This document shows positions 22,692 to 38,071 of a stretch of 64,000 nt of DNA, piece after piece (position 1 is the first letter of the stretch; the number at the start of each line of letters is the position of its first letter). The translations under genes were made by a program, and so were the position numbers. Under the pieces are notes generated by a model. That model did no database searches. It was not told where the DNA came from and worked only from the letters and a program-made list of their open reading frames with translations. The stretch comes from an uncultured Schleiferiaceae bacterium (lineage in GTDB: Bacteria > Bacteroidota > Bacteroidia > Flavobacteriales > Schleiferiaceae), in assembly GCA_963974215.1 (NCBI GenBank), contig CAXBBL010000010.1, positions 1-64,000 on the forward strand, read 5' to 3'.

Positions 22692-23384
22692 CTAAGCCAG
22701 GCTAGTCCACAAACGGCCAAATTCATTTTTAAAGCTGCGAATCAAACCTGCATCTTCTAATACTACAATGTTTTCGTAATTGCTGCTTGCCGCAGAACGG
22801 GTCCAATTATAACTGCCCGTTATTAAAAAGGCACTATCGAATAGGGCGAATTTGTGGTGCATATGCACTTTCGTGTGATCGGTTCTGAGCGGAATTCCCT
22901 TTTGATGCAGATAATCCACATCCGAGCCCATATCAAAAGCCTTATCATTATCGGTGATAATCCGCACTCGTAATCCTCGTTGATGCGCCGCCAAAATAGC
23001 CTCACTAATAATATCATCACTAATGGTGAAAACGCAGATATCTACAGAGGTTTTCGCGTTTGCCAGTTGATATAATATCGCATCTCTACACGCGTCGCCT
23101 GGACTAAAATAAGCGCGACCTTTAAATTCTTTACTCTCTCCGTTTGAGCCTAAAACTAATTTAGCTCCTTCGTAAAACCAGCTTAAAAGATGCTGCGATT
23201 CAGTATCAGCACTTGCTTCTAAAGCAAGATCTCTAAATTTACTCAGCAACCAAGAATTATTAGCATCATCAAAGTTTAATTCTTTTAGTAATGCCTTTAA
23301 ATCCCTTCGTTCTTGTCGCGATAAATATTGATCCTCTATCGAGCGCTCCATCTCCTCAAGAAGCTTGGCAATTTCAATTTTCAT
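22692..23384 (-). CDS. Phospholipase D-family protein with a single HKD motif (Nuc-like nuclease/phosphodiesterase)
   Basis: 230 aa. One HxKxxxxD motif (HMHHKFALFD) followed by GSYNWT. It is about half the size of a two-HKD cardiolipin synthase, and has a ~90-aa helical N-terminal extension. Confidence 0.75.
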   Translation of the reverse strand: MKIEIAKLLEEMERSIEDQYLSRQERRDLKALLKELNFDDANNSWLLSKFRDLALEASADTESQHLLSWFYEGAKLVLGSNGESKEFKGRAYFSPGDACRDAILYQLANAKTSVDICVFTISDDIISEAILAAHQRGLRVRIITDNDKAFDMGSDVDYLHQKGIPLRTDHTKVHMHHKFALFDSAFLITGSYNWTRSAASSNYENIVVLEDAGLIRSFKNEFGRLWTSLA

Positions 23385-23393
23385 AAGTCATTT

Positions 23394-24158
23394 TTATTTA
23401 GAAAGCTTCGAGATTTCACTTTTCAGTAGATCGATTTGCTCCTGAAAAGCACCTGCGCTGCTAATATTTTTAGTTATCACTTGCTCTATCTGCCACAAAT
23501 CTACTATCGCAGTGGGCGGGATTTCCTCTTGGTAATAATCACGTGAAGTAGCACTTATGCTTAATAGCTCTTTCTTAAGGCTCGTTAAACGACGTAGTTT
23601 CCAATCTTCAGCAGTTTCAAAAAGATAAATCTTCCCTTGCTCTGCCTTACTTAAGTTAAAGGAAGACTCCTTATAAGCGATTATAATATCACCCGCTCCA
23701 AAACCCACACCCTGCTCTAGCATGCTGTTATCTGCTAATTCAAAGGCCCGGTAATCTCCTCCCTTGGCTAGCGGTAAACTCAGCTGAGCCATTTGCAACA
23801 AGGCCTCACGGTCGGCTAGATATTCTGATTTTAAAAACTGGGTAATTAGCGGAATAGAGCGAAGACTGGGAGGGATTTTACTAGGGCGCAAGTTATGTTT
23901 TGCTCCTTTAATCAAATCCTTACGGAAGATATCGAAATGATAGAGATCATTTACTGACAAGTCCTTCTTTAGTAATTCATCCACCGAAATGCCAAAATGA
24001 TTAGCTATTTCTATAATGGTAGACAATTTCGGTTCCGCCCGACCTTCTTCATAAGCACCAATACTAGCTCTTTTAAGATTAAATAAGTCAGCAAAATCAC
24101 TCTGATTCAACCCTTTAACACCTCTAATCTTCTTAATGTTTTTTCCTATGCTTGACAT
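23394..24158 (-). CDS. HTH-XRE / S24 (LexA/CI-like) peptidase-domain transcriptional repressor
   Basis: 254 aa. N-terminal XRE helix-turn-helix (LNQSDFADLFNLKRASIGAYEEGRAEP). C-terminal S24-like Ser region ADNSMLEQGVGFGAGDIIIA with a downstream Lys. Forms an operon with the PLD gene. Confidence 0.75.
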   Translation of the reverse strand: MSSIGKNIKKIRGVKGLNQSDFADLFNLKRASIGAYEEGRAEPKLSTIIEIANHFGISVDELLKKDLSVNDLYHFDIFRKDLIKGAKHNLRPSKIPPSLRSIPLITQFLKSEYLADREALLQMAQLSLPLAKGGDYRAFELADNSMLEQGVGFGAGDIIIAYKESSFNLSKAEQGKIYLFETAEDWKLRRLTSLKKELLSISATSRDYYQEEIPPTAIVDLWQIEQVITKNISSAGAFQEQIDLLKSEISKLSK

Positions 24159-24348: not shown

Positions 24349-24744
24349 ATGACAAGCTATTTCGACAAGGTAAAATCATTTGTTCTAGACCTAGACCTTA
24401 GCATCGTATATCAAAACGAAGAGGAAGAAATTTTAGTAATTGAAGATGAGACTTCAGGTATTAGCAATTTGGTTTTAGCTTGTGCTGATCCGATTCTAAT
24501 TATGGAGCAATTTCTCTTCGAGCTAAAAAGCGACGATAAGGAAATCCTTAAAAACCTCTTAATAAAGAACCGCGACATTGTGCACGGTGCTTTTGCCCTA
24601 GACGAAAGTGGAAATCGCGTTATTTTCCGCGATACTTTACAAATCGAAAACCTTGACGCAAACGAATTAGAAGGGTCTATTAATAGCTTAGGCATGCTCT
24701 TAAGCGAATACTCCGACGAACTCATCAAATTTTCAAAACATTAA
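24349..24744 (+). CDS. YbjN/YjfI(DUF2170)-like small acidic protein
   Basis: 131 aa. Acidic. Sits immediately upstream of the pspA-family gene, as E. coli yjfI does relative to yjfJ. The call rests on size, composition and context, so it is tentative. Confidence 0.4.
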   Translation: MTSYFDKVKSFVLDLDLSIVYQNEEEEILVIEDETSGISNLVLACADPILIMEQFLFELKSDDKEILKNLLIKNRDIVHGAFALDESGNRVIFRDTLQIENLDANELEGSINSLGMLLSEYSDELIKFSKH

Positions 24745-24755
24745 AAAAAACAACA

Positions 24756-25484
24756 ATGAATATTTTAAGAAGACTTTTTAGCATCGGTAAAGCCGAAACC
24801 AATTCAGCTCTAGACAAACTGGAGGACCCTATTAAAATGACGGAGCAGGGTATCCGCGATTTAAAAATGGATTTAGACAAGGCACTGCACGCTTTGGCAG
24901 AAATCAAAGCGCTAAGCATTCGTGCTCGCAATGACCAAAGCAATTTCGAAAGCAAGGCTAAGGACTACGAAAAGAAAGCGATTATGCTGCTAGAACGCGC
25001 CGAAAAAGGCGACATGGAAATGGTGGAAGCAGAACGTCTTGCCAACGAAGCCTTAGTTAAGAAAAACGAAAACAAAGAACAGGCTCAACGCTCTTTAGCA
25101 GATAAAAACAAGTTCGATGGCAACATAAGCACCATGGAGTCGAATATCAAAAAACTTCGTCAGCAAATTAGTCAATACGAAAATGAGCTTAAAACCCTGA
25201 AAGCCAGAGTTAAAGTTAGCTCAGCAACTGTGAATATCAACAAGCAAATGTCTAAGATTGATGGCTCAGGTACCGTTAGCATGCTAGAGCGCATGAAAGA
25301 AAAAGTAGAGCAAGAAGAAGCGCTTGCTGAAAGCTACGGCGATATTGCCAATGAAAGCCGCTCGATTGATGAAGAAATCGACAAAGCCCTTGACGGCGCC
25401 AGCTCTAGCCAGGCCAGCGATGATCTAGCCGCATTAAAAGCACGCTTAGGCATGAACAAAGCCGACGACAGTAAAAGTGAATAA
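24756..25484 (+). CDS. pspA: PspA/IM30/Vipp1-family protein (bacterial ESCRT-III-like)
   Basis: 242 aa. N-terminal MNILRRLFSIGKAETNSALDKLEDPIKMTEQGIRDLKMDL is characteristic of the PspA/IM30 N-terminus. The whole length is coiled coil. Confidence 0.85.
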   Translation: MNILRRLFSIGKAETNSALDKLEDPIKMTEQGIRDLKMDLDKALHALAEIKALSIRARNDQSNFESKAKDYEKKAIMLLERAEKGDMEMVEAERLANEALVKKNENKEQAQRSLADKNKFDGNISTMESNIKKLRQQISQYENELKTLKARVKVSSATVNINKQMSKIDGSGTVSMLERMKEKVEQEEALAESYGDIANESRSIDEEIDKALDGASSSQASDDLAALKARLGMNKADDSKSE

Positions 25485-25494
25485 AAAATAAATC

Positions 25495-26139
25495 ATGAAC
25501 GAATTCCTTAATCTCATTTTCAACGGAGCCAATGCCATCCCCACGGGATTGCTCCTCTTCATCCTCCTTTATTGGATAATAGTAATTATTGGTCTTTTAG
25601 ATACCGAGTTTTTAGATTTCGATATCGACATTGATGGTGAAGCAGATTTTGAGATTGAGGGAGACGTCTCGGGCGATGTGTCTTGGTTAAATAATGTTCT
25701 CGTCTTTTTCAACCTCGGCCGCATCCCCTTTATGATTTGGCTAAGCTTTGTCAGCCTTCCGCTATGGCTGCTAAGCATTAACATCAATAACTTTTTAGGC
25801 ATCGAAAGCTTTATCTTCGGACTACTAAGTTTTATACCTCTGCTCTTTCTGAGCCTATTAATCTCTAAAGTGCTAACCACACCCTTCGTTCGCTTTTTCG
25901 AAAAATTAAATGAAGACAGTAAAAAGAAGGAAATTATTGGCAAAATAGGCACAGTTATCAGCCCTGCTTCCGACCTCAACAAAGGCATGGCCGAAATCAA
26001 CTATCAAGGCAGTTTTTTAAGACTCTATATCCGCAGTCCGAAAAGCCAGCCTGTACTTAAAGGTGAACAAGTGCTTTTTATTGAGAAGCTCGACGAACCA
26101 GGAGTTTACCTGGTAGAACCTCACCTCAGCATTAGCTAA
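25495..26139 (+). CDS. NfeD-like (YqiJ/YuaF-type) membrane protein with C-terminal OB-fold
   Basis: 214 aa. Multi-TM N-terminal half. C-terminal beta-rich segment GKIGTVISPASDLNKGMAEINYQGSFLRLYIRS...GEQVLFIEKLDEPGVYLVEP typical of the NfeD C-terminal domain. Directly precedes the flotillin gene. Confidence 0.65.
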   Translation: MNEFLNLIFNGANAIPTGLLLFILLYWIIVIIGLLDTEFLDFDIDIDGEADFEIEGDVSGDVSWLNNVLVFFNLGRIPFMIWLSFVSLPLWLLSININNFLGIESFIFGLLSFIPLLFLSLLISKVLTTPFVRFFEKLNEDSKKKEIIGKIGTVISPASDLNKGMAEINYQGSFLRLYIRSPKSQPVLKGEQVLFIEKLDEPGVYLVEPHLSIS

Positions 26140-26165: not shown

Positions 26166-28346
26166 ATGGAAATTTTTCAGCAAACCTACATGGTGATAAT
26201 CATTGTAGCCGTAGTTCTAATTTTCGGGATTATCGCCATGTTCTCCCGCTTCTATTACAAAACCTCCCAAGGCCAAGCTTTAGTTAAAACCGGTGTGGGT
26301 GGTATAAAAGTGTCCTTCAATGGCATGATGGTCATTCCTGTTCTTCACAAAGTGGAGATTATGGACATCTCTTTAAACACCATTACCATCGACCGCAAAG
26401 GCAAAGATGGCCTAGTGTGTAAAGACAACCTACGCGCCGATATAAACGTGGCCTTTTACGTACGCGTTAACGAAATGGTAGACGACGTAAAACGCGTTGC
26501 CCAATCCGTAGGCTGCAGCCGCGCCTCTTCTAAAGAAGCCTTGCGCTTACTTTTTGACGCTAAGTTTTCGGAAGCCTTAAAAACCGTAGGTAAAAAATTC
26601 GACTTCGTTGATTTATACAACCAGCGCGATGAGTTTAGAAGAGAGATTATTGACATTATTGGCACCGACCTAAATGGCTATGTCCTTGACGATGCCGCCA
26701 TCGACTTCCTAGAGCAAACTCCTCTAGAATCTTTGGATCCCAATAATATTTTAGATGCGGAAGGGATTAAAAAGATTACCGAAATCACTGCGAGAGAAGC
26801 GGTTAAAGCCAACTTCATTCAGCGTGATAAGGAAAAGGTAATTAAGCAACAAGATGTTGAAGCCCGCGAAGCAATCTTGGTTTTAGAAAGGCAATTAGCT
26901 GAAAGCGAAGAAAAACAGAAACGCGAAATAGCTAATGTTAAGGCGCGCGAAGAAGCGGAAATTGAAAAAGTAAACCAAGAGGAAAAACTCAAATCGGAAA
27001 GAGCTCGAATTGCTACCGAGGAAGAAATTGAGGTAAGCGAGCAAAATAAAGAGCGCCAAGTAATTGTGGCCGCCAAAAATAAAGAGCGCACCGAAGTTGT
27101 AGAAACGGAAAGAGTTGAAAAAGACCGTCAGCTAGAAGCTACAGAACGCGAACGCATTGTTACGCTTACGCAAATAGAAAAACAAAAAGCGATTGAAACC
27201 GAACAGAAAAACATTCAAGAAGTAATTCGTGAGCGGGTAGCCATTGAGAAAACTGTGGTAGATGAAGAAGAGCGCATCAAAGACACCCGTGCTTTCGCAG
27301 AAGCGGAAAGACTAAAAAGAGTGTCTATTACTAAAGCCGAAGAAGAAGCAGAAGCTTCACTGGTGCAAGAAATTAAAAAGGCGGAAGCCGCTAAATCAGC
27401 CGCTGAGTTTGGTGCCAAGCAGAAAATCATTGATGCCGATGCTGAACAACAAAGCTCGGTGCAAAAAGCAGAAGCCATTAAAGTTTTAGCCGAAGCCGAA
27501 GCCTCTCGTTTTGCCGCAGCAGGATTAGCCGAAGCCCGTGTATTAGAAGCCAAAGCCCAAGCGCGCGAGAAACAAGGGGAAGCAGAAGCTTCTGTTATTG
27601 AAGATCAAGCGATTGCTGAGGCACGCGGTATTGAAGCGAAGAGTTTAGCCCAAGCGGAAGCCGATTTAAGAATTGGTAAATCAGCCGCAGAAGTTAATCA
27701 AGCCACTGGCTTAGCCGAAGCGGAAGTAATTCGCAAGAAAGCGGAAGCGGAAAAAGAAAAAGGTCTAGCCGAAGCGCTAGTGAATTTGGAAAAAGCATCT
27801 GCGGAAGCGGAAGGAATTGACCGCAAAGCTAAAGCCATGAAAACCTTGAATGATGCTGGTAAAGATCACGAAGAGTTTAAACTACGTCTCGATAAAGACA
27901 AATCGGTAGAATTAGCTGGTATTCATATCCAGAAAGATATTGCCGATGCCCAAGCTCAAGTTTTATCAGAAGCATTACGCAGTGCTAAAATTGATATCGT
28001 TGGGGGTGAAAACGTCTTCTTCGACAAGATAGTAGGCGCCATCACTTCTGGAAAATCTATGGACCGTCGCATTGATAACTCGGTCGTATTTACCCAAGTG
28101 AAAGATCAGCTTCTTAATGACCCATCTGGCGCAAGCCTACTAGAAAAAGTACGGGGTATTGTAAAAGAATCGGGCATTAGTACCGAGGACCTTAGAAACC
28201 TTAGTGTGGCTTCTTTCCTTACCCGACTCATTAATAGTACCGACGATAGCAAGAAGCGCAGCGTGCTGGAACAAATGCTGAATTTTGCCAAACAAAACAA
28301 TTTGAGCAATAGCAGCGCTGACGATTTTGGCATCATCGAAGACTAA
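26166..28346 (+). CDS. Flotillin/SPFH (band-7, YqiK-like) protein with an extended Ala/Glu-rich coiled-coil
   Basis: 726 aa. N-terminal TM plus SPFH domain (VKTGVGGIKVSF...VIPVLHKVEIMDISLNTITI), then ~450 aa of AEA/EAE-rich repeats. Antisense ORFs 26456..26665, 26819..27091, 27215..27553 and 28106..28336 are repeat artefacts. Confidence 0.85.
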   Translation: MEIFQQTYMVIIIVAVVLIFGIIAMFSRFYYKTSQGQALVKTGVGGIKVSFNGMMVIPVLHKVEIMDISLNTITIDRKGKDGLVCKDNLRADINVAFYVRVNEMVDDVKRVAQSVGCSRASSKEALRLLFDAKFSEALKTVGKKFDFVDLYNQRDEFRREIIDIIGTDLNGYVLDDAAIDFLEQTPLESLDPNNILDAEGIKKITEITAREAVKANFIQRDKEKVIKQQDVEAREAILVLERQLAESEEKQKREIANVKAREEAEIEKVNQEEKLKSERARIATEEEIEVSEQNKERQVIVAAKNKERTEVVETERVEKDRQLEATERERIVTLTQIEKQKAIETEQKNIQEVIRERVAIEKTVVDEEERIKDTRAFAEAERLKRVSITKAEEEAEASLVQEIKKAEAAKSAAEFGAKQKIIDADAEQQSSVQKAEAIKVLAEAEASRFAAAGLAEARVLEAKAQAREKQGEAEASVIEDQAIAEARGIEAKSLAQAEADLRIGKSAAEVNQATGLAEAEVIRKKAEAEKEKGLAEALVNLEKASAEAEGIDRKAKAMKTLNDAGKDHEEFKLRLDKDKSVELAGIHIQKDIADAQAQVLSEALRSAKIDIVGGENVFFDKIVGAITSGKSMDRRIDNSVVFTQVKDQLLNDPSGASLLEKVRGIVKESGISTEDLRNLSVASFLTRLINSTDDSKKRSVLEQMLNFAKQNNLSNSSADDFGIIED

Positions 28347-28359
28347 ACAAAAGCCAACT

Positions 28360-28389
28360 AGAGCGCGTCTTACGGCGCGCTCTTTCTAA
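28360..28389 (+). terminator. GC-rich hairpin after the flotillin gene (weak T-tract)
   Basis: agagcgcg (28360-67) pairs with cgcgctct (28376-83) around an 8-nt loop, followed by ttct. It may only partly terminate before the 1638-aa gene. Confidence 0.45.
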
Positions 28390-28419: not shown

Positions 28420-31400
28420 ATGGCTCAAGAAAATCAAGAAGTAAATATTGAAATAGGTAGTTATGAAGTAATTCGTGACCGATTGCGTAATCATTCTGCC
28501 GATTTACAAGAGCGTTTACAACGCTTAAACGCGGCGCGCAAAGACGTTTTCGGAGCCACCGAAACCAAGCTGAAAGCAACGGAAAGAATTAGCACGGAAA
28601 ACAACTGCCTAGCCCGTGATATTATTCCTATCGGCGACAATTATTTTTGGTTCGGCTATAATGTACACATGGGCCTGAAAAGCGAAACCCATGTAAATGA
28701 TGTTTTTAGCACCTATCAGTTTCAGGAGGAAAGCCAAAACTTTAAGCTCTGTGAATCCACACTGCTTAATAATGAGCAGTTTTTACTAGACTTTGCCAAT
28801 CTATACCAATATTACCGCGAAACGGTTTTTAGCAAATTTGCCCGCATCGGCAATGCCATCTTTATGGTGTTTCGAGTAGGAAAAAGCGCTAATGATATTA
28901 AAACTTTCAAATGGTCGCTTATTGATGGTAAATATCAATACGCCGGCAACCGTAGTGACCATGAATTTAAATACCCTCAACAGCACGAATTCACTTGGGA
29001 AAAGGTCAGCCGCGATATGCATCGCAAAGGTTTACACCCTCACATCTCTATCAAGGATCGCGTTTTTATTGAAACTACCGGTGGCGATCTTACGCTAAAA
29101 ATTGAAGACAATACCGATACGGGTAAAGGCATTTACAGCGAACCCGTTGAAGACAAAGACCAAACGCTAGATGACGCGGAAATTTACTTTGCCATTATTG
29201 GCAACCTCATCGCTCTTAAAGTAAAACCCTACCAAGAAAAGGATTTTCGCTACATAGTATATAATGAGAAAATTCAAGCCTGTGCTCGCATGGACGCCTT
29301 GGAAGATTCTTGTGTTCTACTGCCCGATAACCAGGGGATCATTTTCGCCAAGGGTTATTATATCCAAACGGGGGAAGTGAAGCTCTTCGATATTCAGCTC
29401 AACAATATGCTTTTTGAGCGGAAAATAGCCTCTCAAAATGGCGAGGATTACCTCTATATCTTTTATCAAGCCGAAAGTGGTATTTATATTTTACTGAATT
29501 ATAACATTATAGATCAGAAGGTTGCCACGCCTATAATTTGCAATGGCTATACGCTATTTGAAAGCGGCGAACTTATTTTCTTTAAGGCCGAAGAGGAACA
29601 AAAAAGAGTACATCTCATCCAAATTTGGCAAACCCCCTTCTACTCGCCTAACCACGTGGTCGAAGCCCAAAGCGATTCCTACCTTTATAAAATTGGCAAT
29701 AAGGAAATTGTGCGTTTGATGAGCGAATGCAGTGAACTAATTAAGCTAATTGGCAAAGATGATCGCTACGCAAATTTATACACCGATTTAAGCAAGCAAA
29801 GTACTGGCATTATCGATGCCTACCATTGGATTAACCATGCCGAAGTAGAACAGATCTCCAAACCCATTGAAGCCATAAAAAGCACAGCCACTGCAGCCAT
29901 TGATGAATACGAGAAGGTTCTAAAAATTAAAGCCCATACAGCAGCGGAAAGTGCGAGCGTAATGGGAGAAGCCCATAAAGCCATTTCTAAAATAAAAAAT
30001 AGTCAGGCTAAAAATATTGACGAATACGTTAATCGCCTTGCCCTGCTGAGAGAGAATAAAGGGAAAGTAATTGCCTTAAAAGATCTGCGCTACAGCGACC
30101 TTACCGCCATTGAAGCCTTAGAAACTGAGCTAAGTGCGGTGAACGATCAATTATCGAAAGCCACTCTGAATTACCTTCTTCGCAAGGAAGCGCTAGAACC
30201 TTATGAATTAAAAACGGAAAAACTTAAGCAGGAGCTTGACCAAGCTAAAAAAGTAACAGAGCTTAATCGCTTAGCAGAAGACATTGTCCAAATTTCAGCT
30301 GAGCTCGACCTCTTGATTGAAATCGTAGGTAATTTAAAAATTGACGATGCCACTCAGTCGGTTAAAATCATTGACGCCATTTCTACGCTCTATGCGCAGT
30401 TTAACCGCATCAGCGCTCAGCTTAAAAACCGTAAAAAAGAATTACTTAGTCTCGAAGGCGAAGCAGAGTTTAAGTCACAAATAAAACTCATCAACCAAGG
30501 CCTTACCAATTACCTCAACTTGGCTGATTCAGCCGAAAAGTGCGATGAATACCTCAATAAGTTGATGGTACAGCTGGAGGAATTGGAAGCGAAATTCGCA
30601 GCCTTTGATGAGTTTATAGAAATCATTGCCGAAAAAAGGGAAGAGCTTTACAGTGCTTTTGACTCGAAGAAAGTTCAACTAAATGAAGCCTTAAACAAAC
30701 AAACGCTTAGTCTACAAAAATCGGGCGGTCGCATCATTAACGGCATCCAAAAAAGGCTAGCCAAGCTTAAGAACGAAGGCGAAATGCGCACCTTCTTTGC
30801 TAGCGATTTAATGATTGAAAAAGTACGTGGCATCGCCGAACAACTTTTATCATTAGGCGATTCGGTGAAAGCCGATGACCTTCTTAGTCAGTTAAAAACC
30901 AGCTACGAAGATGCCCTAAGACAAAGCAAAGACAAGCAGGAACTTTTTGTAAAGGGCGAAAATATCATTCAACTGGGCAAGCATCAGTTTAATGTAAACA
31001 CCCAAAGCATCGACCTCAGCATTGTTTATAAAGACGAGAATCTTTACTACCATATTAGTGGCACTAACTTTTTTGAAGCCTTGCAATCTGAGGCCGTTGA
31101 AGCAACCCGCAGCGTGTGGGACCAAAGCCTGAAAAGTGAAAATGCCCAAGTCTATCGCGCTGAGTATTTAGCTTATCACCTTTTTCTGGAAGCTCAACAT
31201 GGCCAGAACGAGGAAGAAACTAAAACTCTGGAAGAATTGCATCTTCTTAATGACAGCGATTTACAGGAATACGTGCAGCTTAAAATGGGCCGTAAATACG
31301 ATGAAGGTTATGTAAAAGGCGTGCACGATAAAGACGCTATGCTCATTTTAAAAGCCTTACTGAAACTTCATTTTAGCATCGGACTTTTACGTTATAGTAG

Positions 31401-33336
31401 CAATGCGAGATGCCTCGCCTACTTATTTTGGAAACGCGAAATATCGAGCGAACTGCGTGAAAAATGGGAAGAGAATATGCGTATTATTCGCAGCATTCTA
31501 AAAATATTTCCTCAAAGTAAAAGCTTCGTAAACAGTATTGCCGAGCTAAAAAATGATATTCAATCCCTTCCGCTTCAGCTAGATTGGGTAGATGACAAAG
31601 CACAAGAAGATGCCGCTCATTACCTATTCCATCTTTTAAGTTCAGAGCAAAAGCTAGCCTTTTCCCTCTCCGCTTGGGATTTAAGTGAGCAGTTTGAATT
31701 ACACCTAAAAAAGAACCGCTGGACCAAAGACTATGAATTGTCTTTGAAAAACGAAAAAGGCAATAAAGGAAAGAGCTTTCAAACGATCCTATCTTGGCTT
31801 AAAGCCTACCAAAACCAAGGGACAAGCAAGCCCTTTTCGGAAGAGGTAATGCGCGAGGCCAGCGTCCTTTTAATGGATAAAACGCTTGCGCTAGATGAGC
31901 ATCAAAAAGTGATACTCTCCGAAAAAATAGAAGGACTAGAAGGAGAGCACCCGTCTCTTGAAAAAGGACAAACAATGCTTCACTACCCGCATTTTATGGA
32001 GAAGCTGCATCGATTTAAAAGCACCACGGTGCAGGATTTTCTGCGCTTTCAAAAATTGAAAAAGGATTTACTAGCAGCCCAGAAAAAGGAATTACGCTTA
32101 CAAGAATTCAAACCCAAGGTGATGAGTTCTTTTGTTCGCAACCAATTATTGGATGAAGTTTATCTGCCTTTAATCGGCGATAACCTTGCCAAGCAAATGG
32201 GCGCTGCGGGTGCCAATAAACGTACCGATCTAATGGGAATGCTTTTACTCATTTCCCCCCCAGGTTATGGTAAGACTACCTTAATGGAATATATCGCCAA
32301 CCGTTTGGGATTGGTTTTTATGAAAATAAACGGTCCTGCTATTGGTCATGAAGTTACCGCTATTGACCCTTCGGTAGCGCCAAATTCTGCAGCACGTGAA
32401 GAACTGGAAAAACTAAACCTCGCATTTGAGATGGGCGATAATGTTATGATCTATATCGATGATATTCAGCATTGTAATCCCGCATTTTTGCAGAAATTTA
32501 TTTCACTCTGCGACGCGCAACGCAAAATAGAAGGCATCTACAAAGGTGTAAGCAAAACTTACGATTTCCGTGGCCGAAAAGTGGCAGTCGTAATGGCGGG
32601 GAACCCCTATACCGAAAGTGGCGATAAGTTTCAAATTCCCGATATGCTATCCAACCGAGCCGATATTTACAACCTCGGAGATATTATAGGCGGCAAGGCC
32701 GAAGCCTTTGAAAATAGCTATTTAGAAAACAGCCTGAGCAGTAATCCTAGCATTGCAAAACTGAAAGATCAAAACAGCAAAGACTTCAAAATATTGGTCC
32801 AAGCGATTGAAAGTGGCGACACCAGTCAGATAAGTTTAGAAGGAAAGCACAGTGGAGAAGAAATAAAAGAATACCTTCAGATTTTGCAGAAAATGCTAAG
32901 ATTGAGAGCGGTAATTTTAAAAGTAAACAAACAGTACATTCTTTCGGCTGGACAAGCGGAAGAGTATAGAACGGAACCTCCATTTAAACTGCAAGGCTCT
33001 TACCGCGATATGAATAAAATGGTAGAGAAACTGAGTCCGATAATGAATGAAGAAGAGTTAGAAACCTTAATCCTTTCGCATTATGAAAACGAATCGCAAA
33101 GTTTAAGCTCGGCGGCAGAATTCAATTTCTTAAAACTGAAGGAACTCTTGGATTTAATGAGCGAAGACGAGAAAAAAAGAAAAGAAGAAATCCTTGCAGT
33201 GTTTAGCCGACAACAAAAAATGAAGAGTTTCGGTGGTAATCAAATTGCACCGATTATAGAACAAATGGAGCGAGCAGGAATTGCCTTAGATGAATTAGTA
33301 AAGATTTTTCAAGGACCCACAAACCTGCCTAAATAA
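28420..33336 (+). CDS. Giant three-part protein: N-terminal globular region, ~600-aa coiled coil, C-terminal MoxR-type AAA+ ATPase
   Basis: 1638 aa. Walker A LLISPPGYGKTTLMEYIANRLG. Walker B, sensor and arginine region VMIYIDDIQHCNPAFLQKFISLCDAQ ... VAVVMAGNPYTESGDKFQIPDMLSNRAD. These match the MoxR/AAA_3-AAA_5 pattern (GPPGxGKT; DEINRAxPxxQSALLEAM; ATQNP...P.AxLDRF). Residues ~470-1100 are heptad-rich helical. Small nested ORFs such as 28801..29022 and 30916..31149 are spurious. Confidence 0.85.
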   Translation: MAQENQEVNIEIGSYEVIRDRLRNHSADLQERLQRLNAARKDVFGATETKLKATERISTENNCLARDIIPIGDNYFWFGYNVHMGLKSETHVNDVFSTYQFQEESQNFKLCESTLLNNEQFLLDFANLYQYYRETVFSKFARIGNAIFMVFRVGKSANDIKTFKWSLIDGKYQYAGNRSDHEFKYPQQHEFTWEKVSRDMHRKGLHPHISIKDRVFIETTGGDLTLKIEDNTDTGKGIYSEPVEDKDQTLDDAEIYFAIIGNLIALKVKPYQEKDFRYIVYNEKIQACARMDALEDSCVLLPDNQGIIFAKGYYIQTGEVKLFDIQLNNMLFERKIASQNGEDYLYIFYQAESGIYILLNYNIIDQKVATPIICNGYTLFESGELIFFKAEEEQKRVHLIQIWQTPFYSPNHVVEAQSDSYLYKIGNKEIVRLMSECSELIKLIGKDDRYANLYTDLSKQSTGIIDAYHWINHAEVEQISKPIEAIKSTATAAIDEYEKVLKIKAHTAAESASVMGEAHKAISKIKNSQAKNIDEYVNRLALLRENKGKVIALKDLRYSDLTAIEALETELSAVNDQLSKATLNYLLRKEALEPYELKTEKLKQELDQAKKVTELNRLAEDIVQISAELDLLIEIVGNLKIDDATQSVKIIDAISTLYAQFNRISAQLKNRKKELLSLEGEAEFKSQIKLINQGLTNYLNLADSAEKCDEYLNKLMVQLEELEAKFAAFDEFIEIIAEKREELYSAFDSKKVQLNEALNKQTLSLQKSGGRIINGIQKRLAKLKNEGEMRTFFASDLMIEKVRGIAEQLLSLGDSVKADDLLSQLKTSYEDALRQSKDKQELFVKGENIIQLGKHQFNVNTQSIDLSIVYKDENLYYHISGTNFFEALQSEAVEATRSVWDQSLKSENAQVYRAEYLAYHLFLEAQHGQNEEETKTLEELHLLNDSDLQEYVQLKMGRKYDEGYVKGVHDKDAMLILKALLKLHFSIGLLRYSSNARCLAYLFWKREISSELREKWEENMRIIRSILKIFPQSKSFVNSIAELKNDIQSLPLQLDWVDDKAQEDAAHYLFHLLSSEQKLAFSLSAWDLSEQFELHLKKNRWTKDYELSLKNEKGNKGKSFQTILSWLKAYQNQGTSKPFSEEVMREASVLLMDKTLALDEHQKVILSEKIEGLEGEHPSLEKGQTMLHYPHFMEKLHRFKSTTVQDFLRFQKLKKDLLAAQKKELRLQEFKPKVMSSFVRNQLLDEVYLPLIGDNLAKQMGAAGANKRTDLMGMLLLISPPGYGKTTLMEYIANRLGLVFMKINGPAIGHEVTAIDPSVAPNSAAREELEKLNLAFEMGDNVMIYIDDIQHCNPAFLQKFISLCDAQRKIEGIYKGVSKTYDFRGRKVAVVMAGNPYTESGDKFQIPDMLSNRADIYNLGDIIGGKAEAFENSYLENSLSSNPSIAKLKDQNSKDFKILVQAIESGDTSQISLEGKHSGEEIKEYLQILQKMLRLRAVILKVNKQYILSAGQAEEYRTEPPFKLQGSYRDMNKMVEKLSPIMNEEELETLILSHYENESQSLSSAAEFNFLKLKELLDLMSEDEKKRKEEILAVFSRQQKMKSFGGNQIAPIIEQMERAGIALDELVKIFQGPTNLPK

Positions 33337-33974: not shown

Positions 33975-34523
33975 ATGAGTCTATTTAAAAATCTTTTTGG
34001 TAAAAAAGAAGAAGAACCAAAACCCTTCAGTCGCACCGTTCTAGACCTAAGCATGGGTTATATTTTCGAATATGATTTACGCACTTGGGAAGTTACTGGC
34101 GAATACGAATACGACTGGGGCGATGAAGAATTTAGCAAAGAATACAAGGTTTCCGATGGTAAGGACAGCTTTTACCTTTCGGTAGATGAGGACGACGAAA
34201 TAGAATTGCTCTGGTGTGAAAAAGTACCTATGCGCAAACTAGGAGCGGAAATCGCCAAAAATATAAGCGATGGCTCAGCCCCACCCGAAACCATAATTTA
34301 CAAGGGTAAAAGCTATTTCCTAGATGAAGAATCGCCGGGCTATTTTAACGACATGACCAAAAGTAAAAACGACGATTGGCAAGAATTCATCGCTTGGGAC
34401 TACTATAACGAAGATGAAACTTTAAATTTGACCATTGAACAATGGGGCGAACGTTCCTTCGAGGCATCTTGGGGGAAGGTAATCTCCGAATTCGAAATTT
34501 CTGATATTCTTCCAAGAAAATAA
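33975..34523 (+). CDS. DUF4178-like protein
   Basis: 182 aa, soluble, acidic and Trp/Tyr-rich (YIFEYDLRTWEVTGEYEYDWGDEEF...FYLSVDEDDEIELLW). Fits my recollection of the DUF4178 family, which is often clustered with DUF350 and spermidine-synthase-like genes. Assigned from memory without an HMM. Confidence 0.45.
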   Translation: MSLFKNLFGKKEEEPKPFSRTVLDLSMGYIFEYDLRTWEVTGEYEYDWGDEEFSKEYKVSDGKDSFYLSVDEDDEIELLWCEKVPMRKLGAEIAKNISDGSAPPETIIYKGKSYFLDEESPGYFNDMTKSKNDDWQEFIAWDYYNEDETLNLTIEQWGERSFEASWGKVISEFEISDILPRK

Positions 34524-34528
34524 GAACC

Positions 34529-35296
34529 ATGCGCATCTATCATTATCTCAGTCTTTTAGCAAGCTTATTTTTAATTAGCGCTTGCGGACCTAATACCCCG
34601 GTTTACGAGAAAAACCCCATCGACGATTTAGTAAAAAAAATGACTGAAGTGCCGAACTACAGCATTATGCTTTACGACATGAACTACGATGAGAGTAGCG
34701 AAAAGTATTTGCATCAGTATCGCATCTTAAAAGAAGACAGCTTCAACGACACCTTAGTTTCAGAAACTACCGATTGGCTGCAAGTGAGCGACAGCTATTT
34801 CAATAGCAATATCGACAATATGGGCATGGCGCTTATCACTAAAGTAGATGGGAAAGTGGAAAAGAAAGTAGCACCTCCTGGTTATAATAATTATGTTGGC
34901 AACGAGAAGTACGGAAAATGGAACCAAGGTTCGGATGGCAATAGCTTTTGGGAATTCTACGGCAAATACGCCATGCTGCGTTCCGTTTTAGGTTACGGTA
35001 TGTCCCCTATTTACCGTGGCGGCTGGAACGATTATCGTCGCAATTATTATCCCTCGGGCAGAACCTATTACGGTAATAACTCCAACGGTGGCACTCGCTT
35101 TGGCACTAATGGCAGCCACACCAGCAATCGGAGCAGTCGCTCTACTTGGAACAGCAAACCCACTACCTTCAAACAAAATGTGCGCAGCAAAGTACAACGC
35201 AGTAGCAGCCGTACAAGCAGCAGAAACTCACGTTCCTCTTCACGCTATCGCAGCAGTTCTAGCAGTCGAGGACGCGGATTTGGTGGTGGAAAATAA
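34529..35296 (+). CDS. Lipoprotein with C-terminal Arg/Ser/Gly-rich low-complexity tail
   Basis: 255 aa. Lipobox LISACG. The last ~90 aa are NRSSRSTWNSK...RSSSRTSSRNSRSSSRYRSSSSSRGRGFGGGK. Overlapping ORFs 34988..35197(-) and 35016..35300(+) are codon-repeat artefacts. Confidence 0.7.
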   Translation: MRIYHYLSLLASLFLISACGPNTPVYEKNPIDDLVKKMTEVPNYSIMLYDMNYDESSEKYLHQYRILKEDSFNDTLVSETTDWLQVSDSYFNSNIDNMGMALITKVDGKVEKKVAPPGYNNYVGNEKYGKWNQGSDGNSFWEFYGKYAMLRSVLGYGMSPIYRGGWNDYRRNYYPSGRTYYGNNSNGGTRFGTNGSHTSNRSSRSTWNSKPTTFKQNVRSKVQRSSSRTSSRNSRSSSRYRSSSSSRGRGFGGGK

Positions 35297-35316
35297 TTAA
35301 GCAAAACAATAGCAAT

Positions 35317-36198
35317 ATGACAACCGAACTTGTAGCAAACGAATGGCTTAACTCCTTTTTGCTTTTTCTCATTTACCTTAGTAGCTCCCTTATTTTACTC
35401 TTTATTGGAAAGTGGGCCTTTAAGCTGCGCAAGAGTAAAATTAACTTTAGCCATGAACTGGTTGAAAAAGATAACCTCGCTTTCAGCTTTGCCTATGTAG
35501 GTTATTTCGCTGGACTAATCCTAGCGGTAGGTAGCGCCATTTACGGCGAGTCAAATGGACTGATAGTTGACTTGGTGGATATGGGAATTTTTGGCTTGCT
35601 CGCCATTATCCTTTTGAACCTTTCCTCTACCATCATGGATAAAATTACCCTTTCTAAATTTTCGATTTGGAAGGAAATTACCGAAGACCGCAATGCCGGG
35701 ATGGGCATTATCGAAGGCGCCAATTATCTGGGCTCGGGATTAATCATTTTCGGCGCTATTACTGGTGAAAGTGGCAACTTGCTTTTTGGCATTTATACCG
35801 CCCTACTCTACTGGGTTTTGGGCCAAGTTCTAATTTTAATTAGCACCGCCCTTTACAACAAATTAGTACCCTACGATATTCACGAGGAAATTGAAAAAGA
35901 CAATGTGGCCGCGGGCATTGCCTATGCGGGACTAATTATCGCAATGGGTAATTTAATTCGCAATGGCCTGATGGGTAATTTCGATAACTGGGTGGATACG
36001 CTAATGGAAGTGGGCTACGAAGCAGGTATTGGTATTATCATTTTACCGCTTATTCGCACTTTGGTAGATAAGATTTTATTGCCGGGACAGAATTTAAGTG
36101 ATGAAATCGCGAATCAAGAAACCCCAAATTCGGGCGCAGCACTAATAGAGGCCTTAGGCTATATTGGCGGATCTATGCTTATAATTTGGTGTATCTAA
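35317..36198 (+). CDS. Membrane protein with two DUF350-like repeats (YjfL-like)
   Basis: 293 aa. Two repeated modules of DN(L/V)A...(A)Y(V/A)G...(I/L) in TM helices, DNLAFSFAYVGYFAGLILAVG and DNVAAGIAYAGLIIAMG. E. coli YjfL is the single-DUF350 counterpart. Confidence 0.5.
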   Translation: MTTELVANEWLNSFLLFLIYLSSSLILLFIGKWAFKLRKSKINFSHELVEKDNLAFSFAYVGYFAGLILAVGSAIYGESNGLIVDLVDMGIFGLLAIILLNLSSTIMDKITLSKFSIWKEITEDRNAGMGIIEGANYLGSGLIIFGAITGESGNLLFGIYTALLYWVLGQVLILISTALYNKLVPYDIHEEIEKDNVAAGIAYAGLIIAMGNLIRNGLMGNFDNWVDTLMEVGYEAGIGIIILPLIRTLVDKILLPGQNLSDEIANQETPNSGAALIEALGYIGGSMLIIWCI

Positions 36199-36199
36199 A

Positions 36200-37744
36200 T
36201 TGAAACTTTCACGCTCTCCCGTCTTAAAACTTGCGCTCTTTGCCACAGGACTTTCTGGCATTGTAGCGGAATACATCCTGTCTACCCTCGCCACCTATTT
36301 TATTGGTGATTCGGCCACACAATGGTCGCTCATCGTTTCGGTAATGCTCTTCTCCATGGGATTGGGTAGCAGGTTTAGCAAGTACTTTAACGAAAACCTT
36401 TTAGTTAAATTCATCGCCATTGAATTTAGCCTCAGTATTCTGGTTTCATTCGCCAGCCTCTTCGCTTATACCGCGGCAGGTTACACCGAATACGTGGGCT
36501 TTATTATTTACGGACTGAGCATTCTCATTGGGATTTTAATCGGTCTCGAAATCCCCTTGGTAATCCGCCTCAACGAAGAGTTCGAATCGCTGCGCATCAA
36601 TGTAGCCAGCGTTATGGAAAAAGATTATTTAGGTTCGCTCGTGGGCGGATTGTTTTTCGCCTTTGTCGGTTTACCGATCTTAGGTTTAACCTACACCCCT
36701 TTTATACTGGGAATGGTAAACTTTGTAGTAGCCATCCTCTTGTTTTTAGTGGTTAAAGACGCTTTAAAAATTAAGGCTAAAAGCCTGATAAGTTTGGCTG
36801 CCGTTATCGTCTTCGCAATGATTAGCACCGGTGCCTATTATGCGAGCCCCATTATCCTACAAGGCGAACAAGCCCGTTACAAAGACAAAGTGGTTTTTGA
36901 GAAGCAGAGCAAATACCAACGCATTGTAATTACCCAGTGGAAAAACGACTATTGGCTTTACATTAATGGAAACCAACAACTTAGCACCATTGACGAAGAC
37001 AAATATCACGAACCATTAATCCATCCAGCGCTAAATATTATTCAAGAGCGTAAGCATATTTTAGTGCTCGGTGGCGGTGATGGATGTGCGGTAAGAGAGA
37101 TTCTAAAATACCCTGACGTAGAGAAAATCACCTTGGTAGATTTAGACTCGGTAATGACCAATATGGGAAAATACAACCCCATTTTACACGAACTAAACGA
37201 AGGTGCTTTTCACCATCCTAAATTAGAAATCATCAATACCGATGCATTCAATTTTATGGAAAAGGGCGAGAACTATTACGATGCGATAATTGTCGATTTA
37301 CCCGATCCTCGCTCGGTCGAATTAAACCGTTTGTACACCTTGCAATTTTACCAGCTTTGTCACTTAAAACTAAAAAAACACGGGGTTTTATTAACCCAAG
37401 CCGGCAGTCCCTATTATGCGACCAAAGCCTTCTTATGCATCGACAAAACCATGGCCGCAGCGGGGTTCACCACTCAAAAAATGCATAACCAAGTAATAAC
37501 ACTAGGCGAATGGGGCTGGGTGATGGGAGTAAAATCTTGGCCCGAAGAAAAAGATTTAAAAGGTACTTTAGAGCAAATGGAGTTTACGATTCCCACGCGT
37601 TGGTTAAATCAAGATGCGATGTTAATGATGTGTAATTTCGGCAAGAACATTTACGAAGCCACGCACGATAGCATTGCGATAAACCAAATTCAAAACCCTG
37701 TTTTGTACCGTTATTACCTGAAAGGCAATTGGGATTTATATTAA
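36200..37744 (+). CDS. Membrane-anchored spermidine-synthase-like aminopropyltransferase
   Basis: 514 aa. Roughly 7 N-terminal TM helices. The C-terminal domain carries the spermidine synthase signature HILVLGGGDGCAVREILKYPDVEKITLVDLD...AIIVDLPDP. Confidence 0.85.
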   Translation: MKLSRSPVLKLALFATGLSGIVAEYILSTLATYFIGDSATQWSLIVSVMLFSMGLGSRFSKYFNENLLVKFIAIEFSLSILVSFASLFAYTAAGYTEYVGFIIYGLSILIGILIGLEIPLVIRLNEEFESLRINVASVMEKDYLGSLVGGLFFAFVGLPILGLTYTPFILGMVNFVVAILLFLVVKDALKIKAKSLISLAAVIVFAMISTGAYYASPIILQGEQARYKDKVVFEKQSKYQRIVITQWKNDYWLYINGNQQLSTIDEDKYHEPLIHPALNIIQERKHILVLGGGDGCAVREILKYPDVEKITLVDLDSVMTNMGKYNPILHELNEGAFHHPKLEIINTDAFNFMEKGENYYDAIIVDLPDPRSVELNRLYTLQFYQLCHLKLKKHGVLLTQAGSPYYATKAFLCIDKTMAAAGFTTQKMHNQVITLGEWGWVMGVKSWPEEKDLKGTLEQMEFTIPTRWLNQDAMLMMCNFGKNIYEATHDSIAINQIQNPVLYRYYLKGNWDLY

Positions 37745-37750
37745 AGGAAA

Positions 37751-38071
37751 ATGGTAAAAACTAGCATTTACAATTTACGCTTTTGGCTTTTGGAAACGAA
37801 TGCCAGTCTATTAAAAGAGCATTTGCATAAATTCTTGAGCGAGGCGGGCTATGGCATTGTAGGCTTTAGCGAGCATCAGTTTCAACCGCAAGGTTATACT
37901 GCCATTTGGTTGCTTAGCGAAAGTCATTTAGCCCTGCACACCTATCCCGAAGATGAACGGTCCTACATAGAGTTGAGCGGCTGCTCCAAAGATATGAACG
38001 AGCGCTTTAAATCGCTTTGCCATCAACAATGGCCCGATAAAATTAAGCAGGAAGAATTGGCCATTTTGTAA
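37751..38071 (+). CDS. speH: S-adenosylmethionine decarboxylase proenzyme, class 1 (pyruvoyl-dependent, small form)
   Basis: 106 aa. HQFQPQGYTAIWLLSESHLALHTYPE aligns with B. subtilis SpeD [26 protein letters not shown]. The E-S self-cleavage site is conserved. Confidence 0.85.
   Translation: MVKTSIYNLRFWLLETNASLLKEHLHKFLSEAGYGIVGFSEHQFQPQGYTAIWLLSESHLALHTYPEDERSYIELSGCSKDMNERFKSLCHQQWPDKIKQEELAIL

Follow-up and report, generated by a model that had tools for sequence, protein, structure and literature searches.

Bacterial flotillins and PspA/Vipp1 assemble into large oligomers on membranes, and we know of no means by which cells dismantle or recycle these oligomers. The well-studied yqiJK operon of E. 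coli works without an ATPase of the DUF3686-AAA+ type, and the likewise well-studied floT operon of B. subtilis is not known to need one; therefore, we regard such an ATPase as an accessory rather than a core flotillin factor. According to a 2025 review, a Vps4-like ATPase appears to be absent from bacteria. Ravi et al. (2024, mSystems, PMC11237479) described a 'Betapropeller+Coiled-coil+AAA-ATPase' architecture downstream of CesT/Tir-PspA-YqiJ-flotillin, with an example in Dokdonia donghaensis (beside ANH61663.1), and drew the same contextual functional inference from comparative genomics; the idea of a remodeller is therefore not new. Our literature search found no experiment on any member of the DUF3686-AAA+ family and no paper naming DUF3686 or the 'DNA repair ATPase' together with a flotillin, and the SPFH papers that we checked did not mention the ATPase. 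Here, we describe the domains and conserved motifs of this ATPase, the size of its family and its linkage to neighbouring genes.

We analyzed a window of 64,000 nucleotides, the whole stretch of DNA studied, from an uncultured Schleiferiaceae bacterium. The order of genes in the window (CesT, PspA, YqiJ, YqiK, ATPase) recurs in related loci and is identical to that of the operon of Ravi et al., where a cHTH+protease regulator is likewise encoded divergently and a PLD gene occurs now and then. The genes are as follows.

22692-23384, minus strand: PLD/HKD hydrolase (Pfam)
23394-24158, minus strand: 'LexA family'-type HTH regulator; S24 peptidase matched weakly (Pfam)
24349-24744, plus strand: CesT/Tir-like chaperone gene (Pfam, E=4e-54)
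24756-25484, plus strand: PspA/IM30 gene (Pfam, E=3.8e-38)
25495-26139, plus strand: YqiJ/NfeD-like membrane protein, 214 aa (BLASTP against E. coli YqiJ, E=3e-4 over 185 aa)
26166-28346, plus strand: YqiK-type flotillin, 726 aa, with a TM segment, an SPFH domain and an EA-rich coiled coil (hhalign)
28420-33336, plus strand: gene of the 1638-aa DUF3686-AAA+ protein (ORF list, translation, Pfam domains)
33975-38071, plus strand: polyamine module (Pfam, NCBIfam)

The regulator and hydrolase genes are divergent from the CesT-to-ATPase array. The 726-aa flotillin itself gave no match in Pfam, NCBIfam or the PDB, even at E=10, and only 2 of its 28 relatives touched the Pfam Flot model. Its family profile aligned with E. 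coli YqiK at a probability of 99.9 (hhalign, E=1.5e-36), and the source product names are 'flotillin family protein' and 'YqiK'. The Pfam YqiJ_N match to the 214-aa membrane protein was weak. Promoter and terminator scans between 22.5 and 38.5 kb returned counts no higher than the shuffled expectation. A hairpin at 28360-28383, in the gap between the flotillin and ATPase genes, may attenuate transcription of the latter relative to the former.

The reading frame of the ATPase gene runs from ATG to stop without interruption. A chance ORF is excluded, as the translation matches Pfam PF12458 (E=3.6e-185) and has over 4600 homologues with lengths near 1640 aa; the protein proposed by the initial annotation is thus real, at the position given there. 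As no transmembrane segment was found in the 1638 aa (highest Kyte-Doolittle 19-residue mean, 1.48), the protein is predicted to be cytoplasmic and soluble.

By sequence, the protein is a member of a catalogued DUF3686-AAA+ family that carries the NCBI product name 'DNA repair ATPase'. The matches of this family, more than 4600 in number, fall into 714 clusters at 50% identity. Among 120 listed homologues, identity ranged from 51 to 96%, mostly at 98-100% query coverage, and the precomputed Pfam set was the same. The arrangement DUF3686, DUF7902, C-terminal AAA+ was collinear, at lengths of 1600-1930 aa, and a set of 66 representatives, none shorter than 1500 aa, had DUF3686 at the N-terminus. 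Structurally, our protein does not differ from the family, with the same three Pfam domains in the same order. The initial annotation held that the family could not be named, yet names exist in Pfam (DUF3686) and NCBI, and the architecture appears in Ravi et al. (2024). It also took a confident full-length match to a characterized family as the finding that would speak against it; the match is indeed confident, but the matched family is uncharacterized.

Two AlphaFold2 models cover the protein (pLDDT 81-84). From the N- to the C-terminus, they predict a propeller, a helical spacer, a small beta unit, a variable helical domain, the AAA+ module and a helical C-terminal part. The architecture had been called tripartite; the models instead indicate five or six parts, listed below with their motifs.

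28450-28551, plus strand: N-terminal long helix, residues 11-44 (AlphaFold2 model)
28501-29826, plus strand: DUF3686 domain, predicted beta-propeller, residues 28-469 (Pfam PF12458, AlphaFold2, Foldseek)
29680-30945, plus strand: all-helical spacer of approximately 12 helices of 16-58 aa, residues 421-842 (AlphaFold2)
30187-30441, plus strand: Pfam DUF7902 (PF25472) within the spacer, residues 590-674 (E=4.9e-25)
30964-31080, plus strand: small beta unit, residues 849-887 (present in both AlphaFold2 models)
31156-31899, plus strand: globular all-helical middle domain, residues 913-1160 (AlphaFold2, pLDDT approximately 90)
31918-32091, plus strand: linker of two short strands, then a long helix (1189-1224) into the ATPase (AlphaFold2)
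32215-32679, plus strand: AAA+ alpha/beta core, residues 1266-1420 (highest conservation along the protein)
32254-32280, plus strand: Walker A SPPGYGKTT, residues 1279-1287 (position, conservation)
32332-32370, plus strand: conserved GPAIGHxVTxxDP loop, after strand 2 and before helix 2 (AlphaFold2, conservation)
32449-32472, plus strand: Walker B IYIDDIQH, residues 1344-1351 (position)
32524-32565, plus strand: pre-sensor-1 beta-hairpin, residues 1369-1382 (AlphaFold2 strands 529-534 and 537-542 in model numbering)
32587-32664, plus strand: sensor 1 VVMAGNPYTE (1390-1399) and arginine-finger segment IPDMLSNRAD (1406-1415) (position)
32680-33333, plus strand: helical lid and C-terminal helical extension, approximately 220 aa (AlphaFold2)
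32995-33006, plus strand: invariant GSYR, residues 1526-1529 (invariant alignment columns)

The N-terminal approximately 470 aa had been described as aromatic-rich and free of recognizable motifs. The first point was borne out, with a combined share of F, W and Y of 12.8% in the N-terminal third versus 5.1% in residues 471-860. The second was not: the region is Pfam DUF3686, matched at 616 bits against a gathering cutoff of 25 over model positions 1-448 of 448, and AlphaFold2 models it as a propeller. Approximately 28 strands lie over residues 50-404 (pLDDT mostly 80-91), and this strand list is consistent with approximately seven blades. A Foldseek search of the PDB with the N-terminal part returned IFT-A, Elp1, CyRPA, the clathrin N-terminal domain and WD40 propellers at E values of 1e-6 to 1e-4.

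The middle of the protein had been taken for approximately 600 aa of heptad-rich helix. Instead of a single stalk, AlphaFold2 predicts approximately 420 aa of broken helices, the beta unit and a helical domain of approximately 250 aa. In a heptad-register test, only 15% of residues 421-842 exceeded the 99th percentile of shuffled sequence, and heptad-like windows in the spacer were confined to 648-679 and 709-739; this test is crude and home-made, and it reads only as no support for a continuous canonical coiled coil. A match of helices 620-681 to TEX12 in the PDB search (E=5.6e-4) was set down to compositional or coiled-coil similarity. The middle domain is the least conserved part of the protein (23% identity to the query among the 66 representatives), with the exception of a conserved GYxKGVHDxDA patch in the alignment consensus at residues 963-973. 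A second, degenerate AAA+ domain at 913-1160 was ruled out, as the region is all-helical in the AlphaFold2 model.

Conservation was measured over the 66 representatives (each at least 1500 aa, 28-48% identity), giving an alignment of 67 rows. The AAA core showed 70% identity to the query, versus 23-41% for the other domains, which suggests that catalysis is central to function. In Walker A, the P, G, K and first T occur in 66-67 of 67 rows and the second T in 63; the GYGKTT reported earlier is present, at residues 1282-1287 and not near 1260. The Walker B acidic pair is D-D, where D-E is usual, and both D1347 and D1348 are kept in 66/67 rows. N1395 of sensor 1 is found in 66/67 rows and the arginine finger R1413 in all 67. 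VVMAGNPYTE, IPDMLSNRAD and the remaining motif strings quoted in the initial annotation all occur in the translation. The lysine of Walker A, the acidic pair of Walker B, a polar residue in sensor 1 and the arginine finger, which mark an active ATPase, are all there and all conserved, so the module is apparently an active ATPase under strong selection, judging from the alignment. It had been rightly proposed that the protein holds just one AAA+ module, which lies in the C-terminal quarter and is apparently active. Its placement at the extreme C-terminus does not hold, as approximately 220 helical residues follow the core. We assign GSYR as a candidate sensor 2 and, from the model, the GPAIGHxVTxxDP loop as a candidate pore or substrate loop. 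The D-D Walker B could mean slow hydrolysis or a switch-like instead of a motor role.

The operon yqiJ(NfeD-like)-yqiK(flotillin)-ATPase is conserved and ends with the ATPase gene; in Bacteroidota, the CesT-like gene and pspA precede it. In a scan of 43 genome loci, a flotillin gene lay upstream on the same strand in 33; of the ten others, nine have less than 1 kb upstream of the match and the tenth (L041) is a fragmentary Bacteroidales match. A flotillin gene was also upstream in all six plasmid-collection loci (Pseudomonas pQBR103, Streptomyces, Proteus, Deinococcus, Vibrio and Hymenobacter). Linkage to a YqiK-type flotillin thus extends to 39 loci in six phyla, the loci having been retrieved by query-derived peptide patterns and not as a random sample of the family. 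The yqiJ gene was present in 26 of the 43 loci, the HTH gene was kept in 16 and the PLD gene in 8. In the genome scan, the CesT-PspA pair was confined to the 15 loci affiliated with Bacteroidota; among the plasmid-collection loci, only Hymenobacter had it. YqiK, YqiJ, HTH, CesT, PspA and PLD were the only conserved neighbours across the 43 loci, and no conserved partner was found downstream of the ATPase gene. The linkage to pspA arises twice in different orders: CesT-PspA-YqiJ-Flot-ATPase in Bacteroidota, and PspA with the polyamine module, then YqiJ-SPFH-ATPase, on pQBR103. The family is almost always encoded straight after a flotillin gene; it is fixed beside yqiK and repeatedly joined to pspA and polyamine genes. 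PspA and flotillin had been named as the relevant partners, rightly so.

From this gene linkage, membrane-scaffold remodelling is most likely the role of the ATPase, more than DNA repair. We consider it somewhat more probable than its converse that the DUF3686-AAA+ protein is an ATP-driven remodeller of flotillin and/or PspA assemblies. The beta-propeller would be a partner-binding platform, and the AAA+ modules would assemble into a ring. The propeller arms might then dock on the membrane-bound flotillin/YqiJ assembly and, where present, on PspA polymers, and ATP hydrolysis would extract or unfold subunits. In this way, oligomeric scaffolds could be assembled, turned over or cleared under envelope stress, and the protein would be a bacterial functional counterpart of Vps4 on ESCRT-III. 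Oligomeric state, substrate identity and reaction direction are what we infer here. PDB sequence searches, in which the C-terminal 438 aa and the whole family profile served as queries, found no solved close relative of the AAA+ module, the best matches spanning the Walker A region only (p97, VAT and RuvB; E approximately 1e-6 and 1e-3); therefore, ring formation and threading would be assumed from general AAA+ biology. Gene neighbourhood does not by itself define the substrate of an ATPase.

The family, found in six phyla, is a concrete and widespread candidate for dismantling or recycling such oligomers, and tractable carriers exist in Proteus mirabilis and Pseudomonas fluorescens SBW25/pQBR103. 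We propose tentatively, and at less than even chances, that bacteria use this family as the ATP-driven machine so far missing for taking apart or reshaping their flotillin (SPFH) domes, their PspA (ESCRT-III) polymers or both, and that it arose independently of Vps4 as its counterpart. Propeller-on-stalk arms would grip the membrane scaffold and a non-classical AAA+ ring would do the work. The likeness to Vps4/CdvC would be one of function, with an AAA+ gene beside the ESCRT-III-family pspA and a membrane scaffold; the Vps4-type features of a classical-clade AAA module and an N-terminal MIT domain were not found.

The protein might instead act on PspA specifically, as a true Vps4 analogue for bacterial ESCRT-III, with flotillin only a membrane platform. 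The same co-directional array holds pspA here and in the 15 Bacteroidota loci, and pQBR103 holds it in another gene order. In addition, ESCRT-III of archaea and eukaryotes depends on an AAA+ disassemblase, for which no bacterial equivalent is known (2025 review). We regard this restriction to PspA as possible, at a low probability.

A mainly structural tether or coat, in which the ATPase is merely an assembly switch, is doubtful. A beta-propeller with long helices behind it recalls coat proteins, Foldseek aligned the N-terminal 900 aa with IFT-A and the clathrin heavy chain over approximately 900-1080 columns, and the D-D Walker B is atypical for a processive motor. However, the TM-scores of these propeller-plus-helix alignments were just 0.08-0.12, and no other part of the protein comes close to the AAA core in conservation.

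We also weighed a membrane-acting anti-phage or conflict system composed of the PLD hydrolase, the HTH-S24 switch and an AAA+ effector. The PLD/HKD gene adjoins the operon in the 8 loci, and in Vibrio campbellii a homologue of it comes immediately after the ATPase gene; PADLOC models for DrmC and control proteins match the PLD and HTH proteins, and copies occur on large plasmids. The ATPase itself was only marginal in PADLOC (mad8, E=1.4e-3, 16 bits), and the flotillin and YqiJ had no match. A search of 50,697 phage records returned no homologue, most loci are without the PLD gene, and within families the genes keep a stable, vertically conserved order, which typical defence islands do not. 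Such a system is decidedly unlikely.

The module had been called MoxR-type, and a MoxR-type chaperone with a VWA partner, like RavA-ViaA or NorQ-NorD, would mature or remodel a specific complex. Pfam AAA_5 matched at 26.4 bits over 124/139 model positions, some homologues carry the JGI label 'MoxR-like ATPase', and the NP-x-E-x-x-G...P-D-x-L-x-x-R spacing resembles MoxR. The GNPYTExGxxFxIPDMLxNRxD stretch places sensor 1 and the arginine finger at a short spacing, which typifies the MoxR/dynein group and is unlike that of ClpB-D2. The motif-level resemblance to MoxR/dynein is therefore real, but the specific MoxR classification is unsupported. The fold search with the C-terminal part returned AAA+ proteins only, with ClpA and ClpB level with dynein and NorQ. 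Against the family profile, E. coli RavA was the worst of nine AAA+ proteins (probability 17%), and E. coli RuvB, ClpB-D2 and Lon scored far above it. The AlphaFold2 model predicts the pre-sensor-1 hairpin but connects strand 2 to helix 2 by a mere loop, with no helix-2 beta-hairpin. A VWA domain, the cognate partner to be looked for, was absent from the 19 neighbouring proteins scanned and from the conserved neighbours over the 43 loci. In addition, the protein is five times larger than MoxR proteins such as RavA, NorQ and CbbQ (1638 versus approximately 300 aa), and its Walker B is DD and not DE. The MoxR chaperone is therefore very improbable. Compared with the HCLR clade (Hsp100/Clp second nucleotide-binding domain, Lon and RuvB), our protein has no Pfam AAA_2 match, an unrelated N-terminal architecture, and neither a protease nor a ClpP-docking element. 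On the predicted structure, the module belongs with the pre-sensor-1-hairpin AAA+ proteins, and not specifically with MoxR. The protein had been rightly set apart from SMC/Rad50, from dynamins and from standard MoxR proteins; it holds one contiguous AAA+ P-loop module without an ABC signature, and neither the Pfam nor the fold searches gave an SMC/Rad50 match.

A DNA-repair ATPase is hardly credible: it is backed by database labels only (the PF12458 description and the NCBI product name) and by the LexA-family-like regulator encoded divergently upstream, whose Hymenobacter homologue is annotated 'LexA family', whereas the Pfam scan gave no domain for nucleic-acid binding, nuclease or helicase activity, membrane proteins are the conserved partners, and no paper backing the label, which is unsupported and probably misleading, was found in the literature search.

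Compared with the rest of the family, the operon is extended here by the polyamine module, in this lineage, and by a small methyltransferase gene, in this strain. In the genome scan, the module follows the ATPase gene in no loci other than L001-L004, which are the closest relatives. Ravi et al. (PMC11237479) list group-1 (flotillin/AAA+) and group-2 (spermine synthase, DUF350, lipoprotein, DUF4178) operons separately, whereas here one CesT-PspA pair heads an array that unites both groups. The module comprises DUF4178, a lipoprotein, DUF350, a membrane-fused polyamine aminopropyltransferase and AdoMet decarboxylase, and the signal of the lipoprotein ends in the lipobox LISAC.

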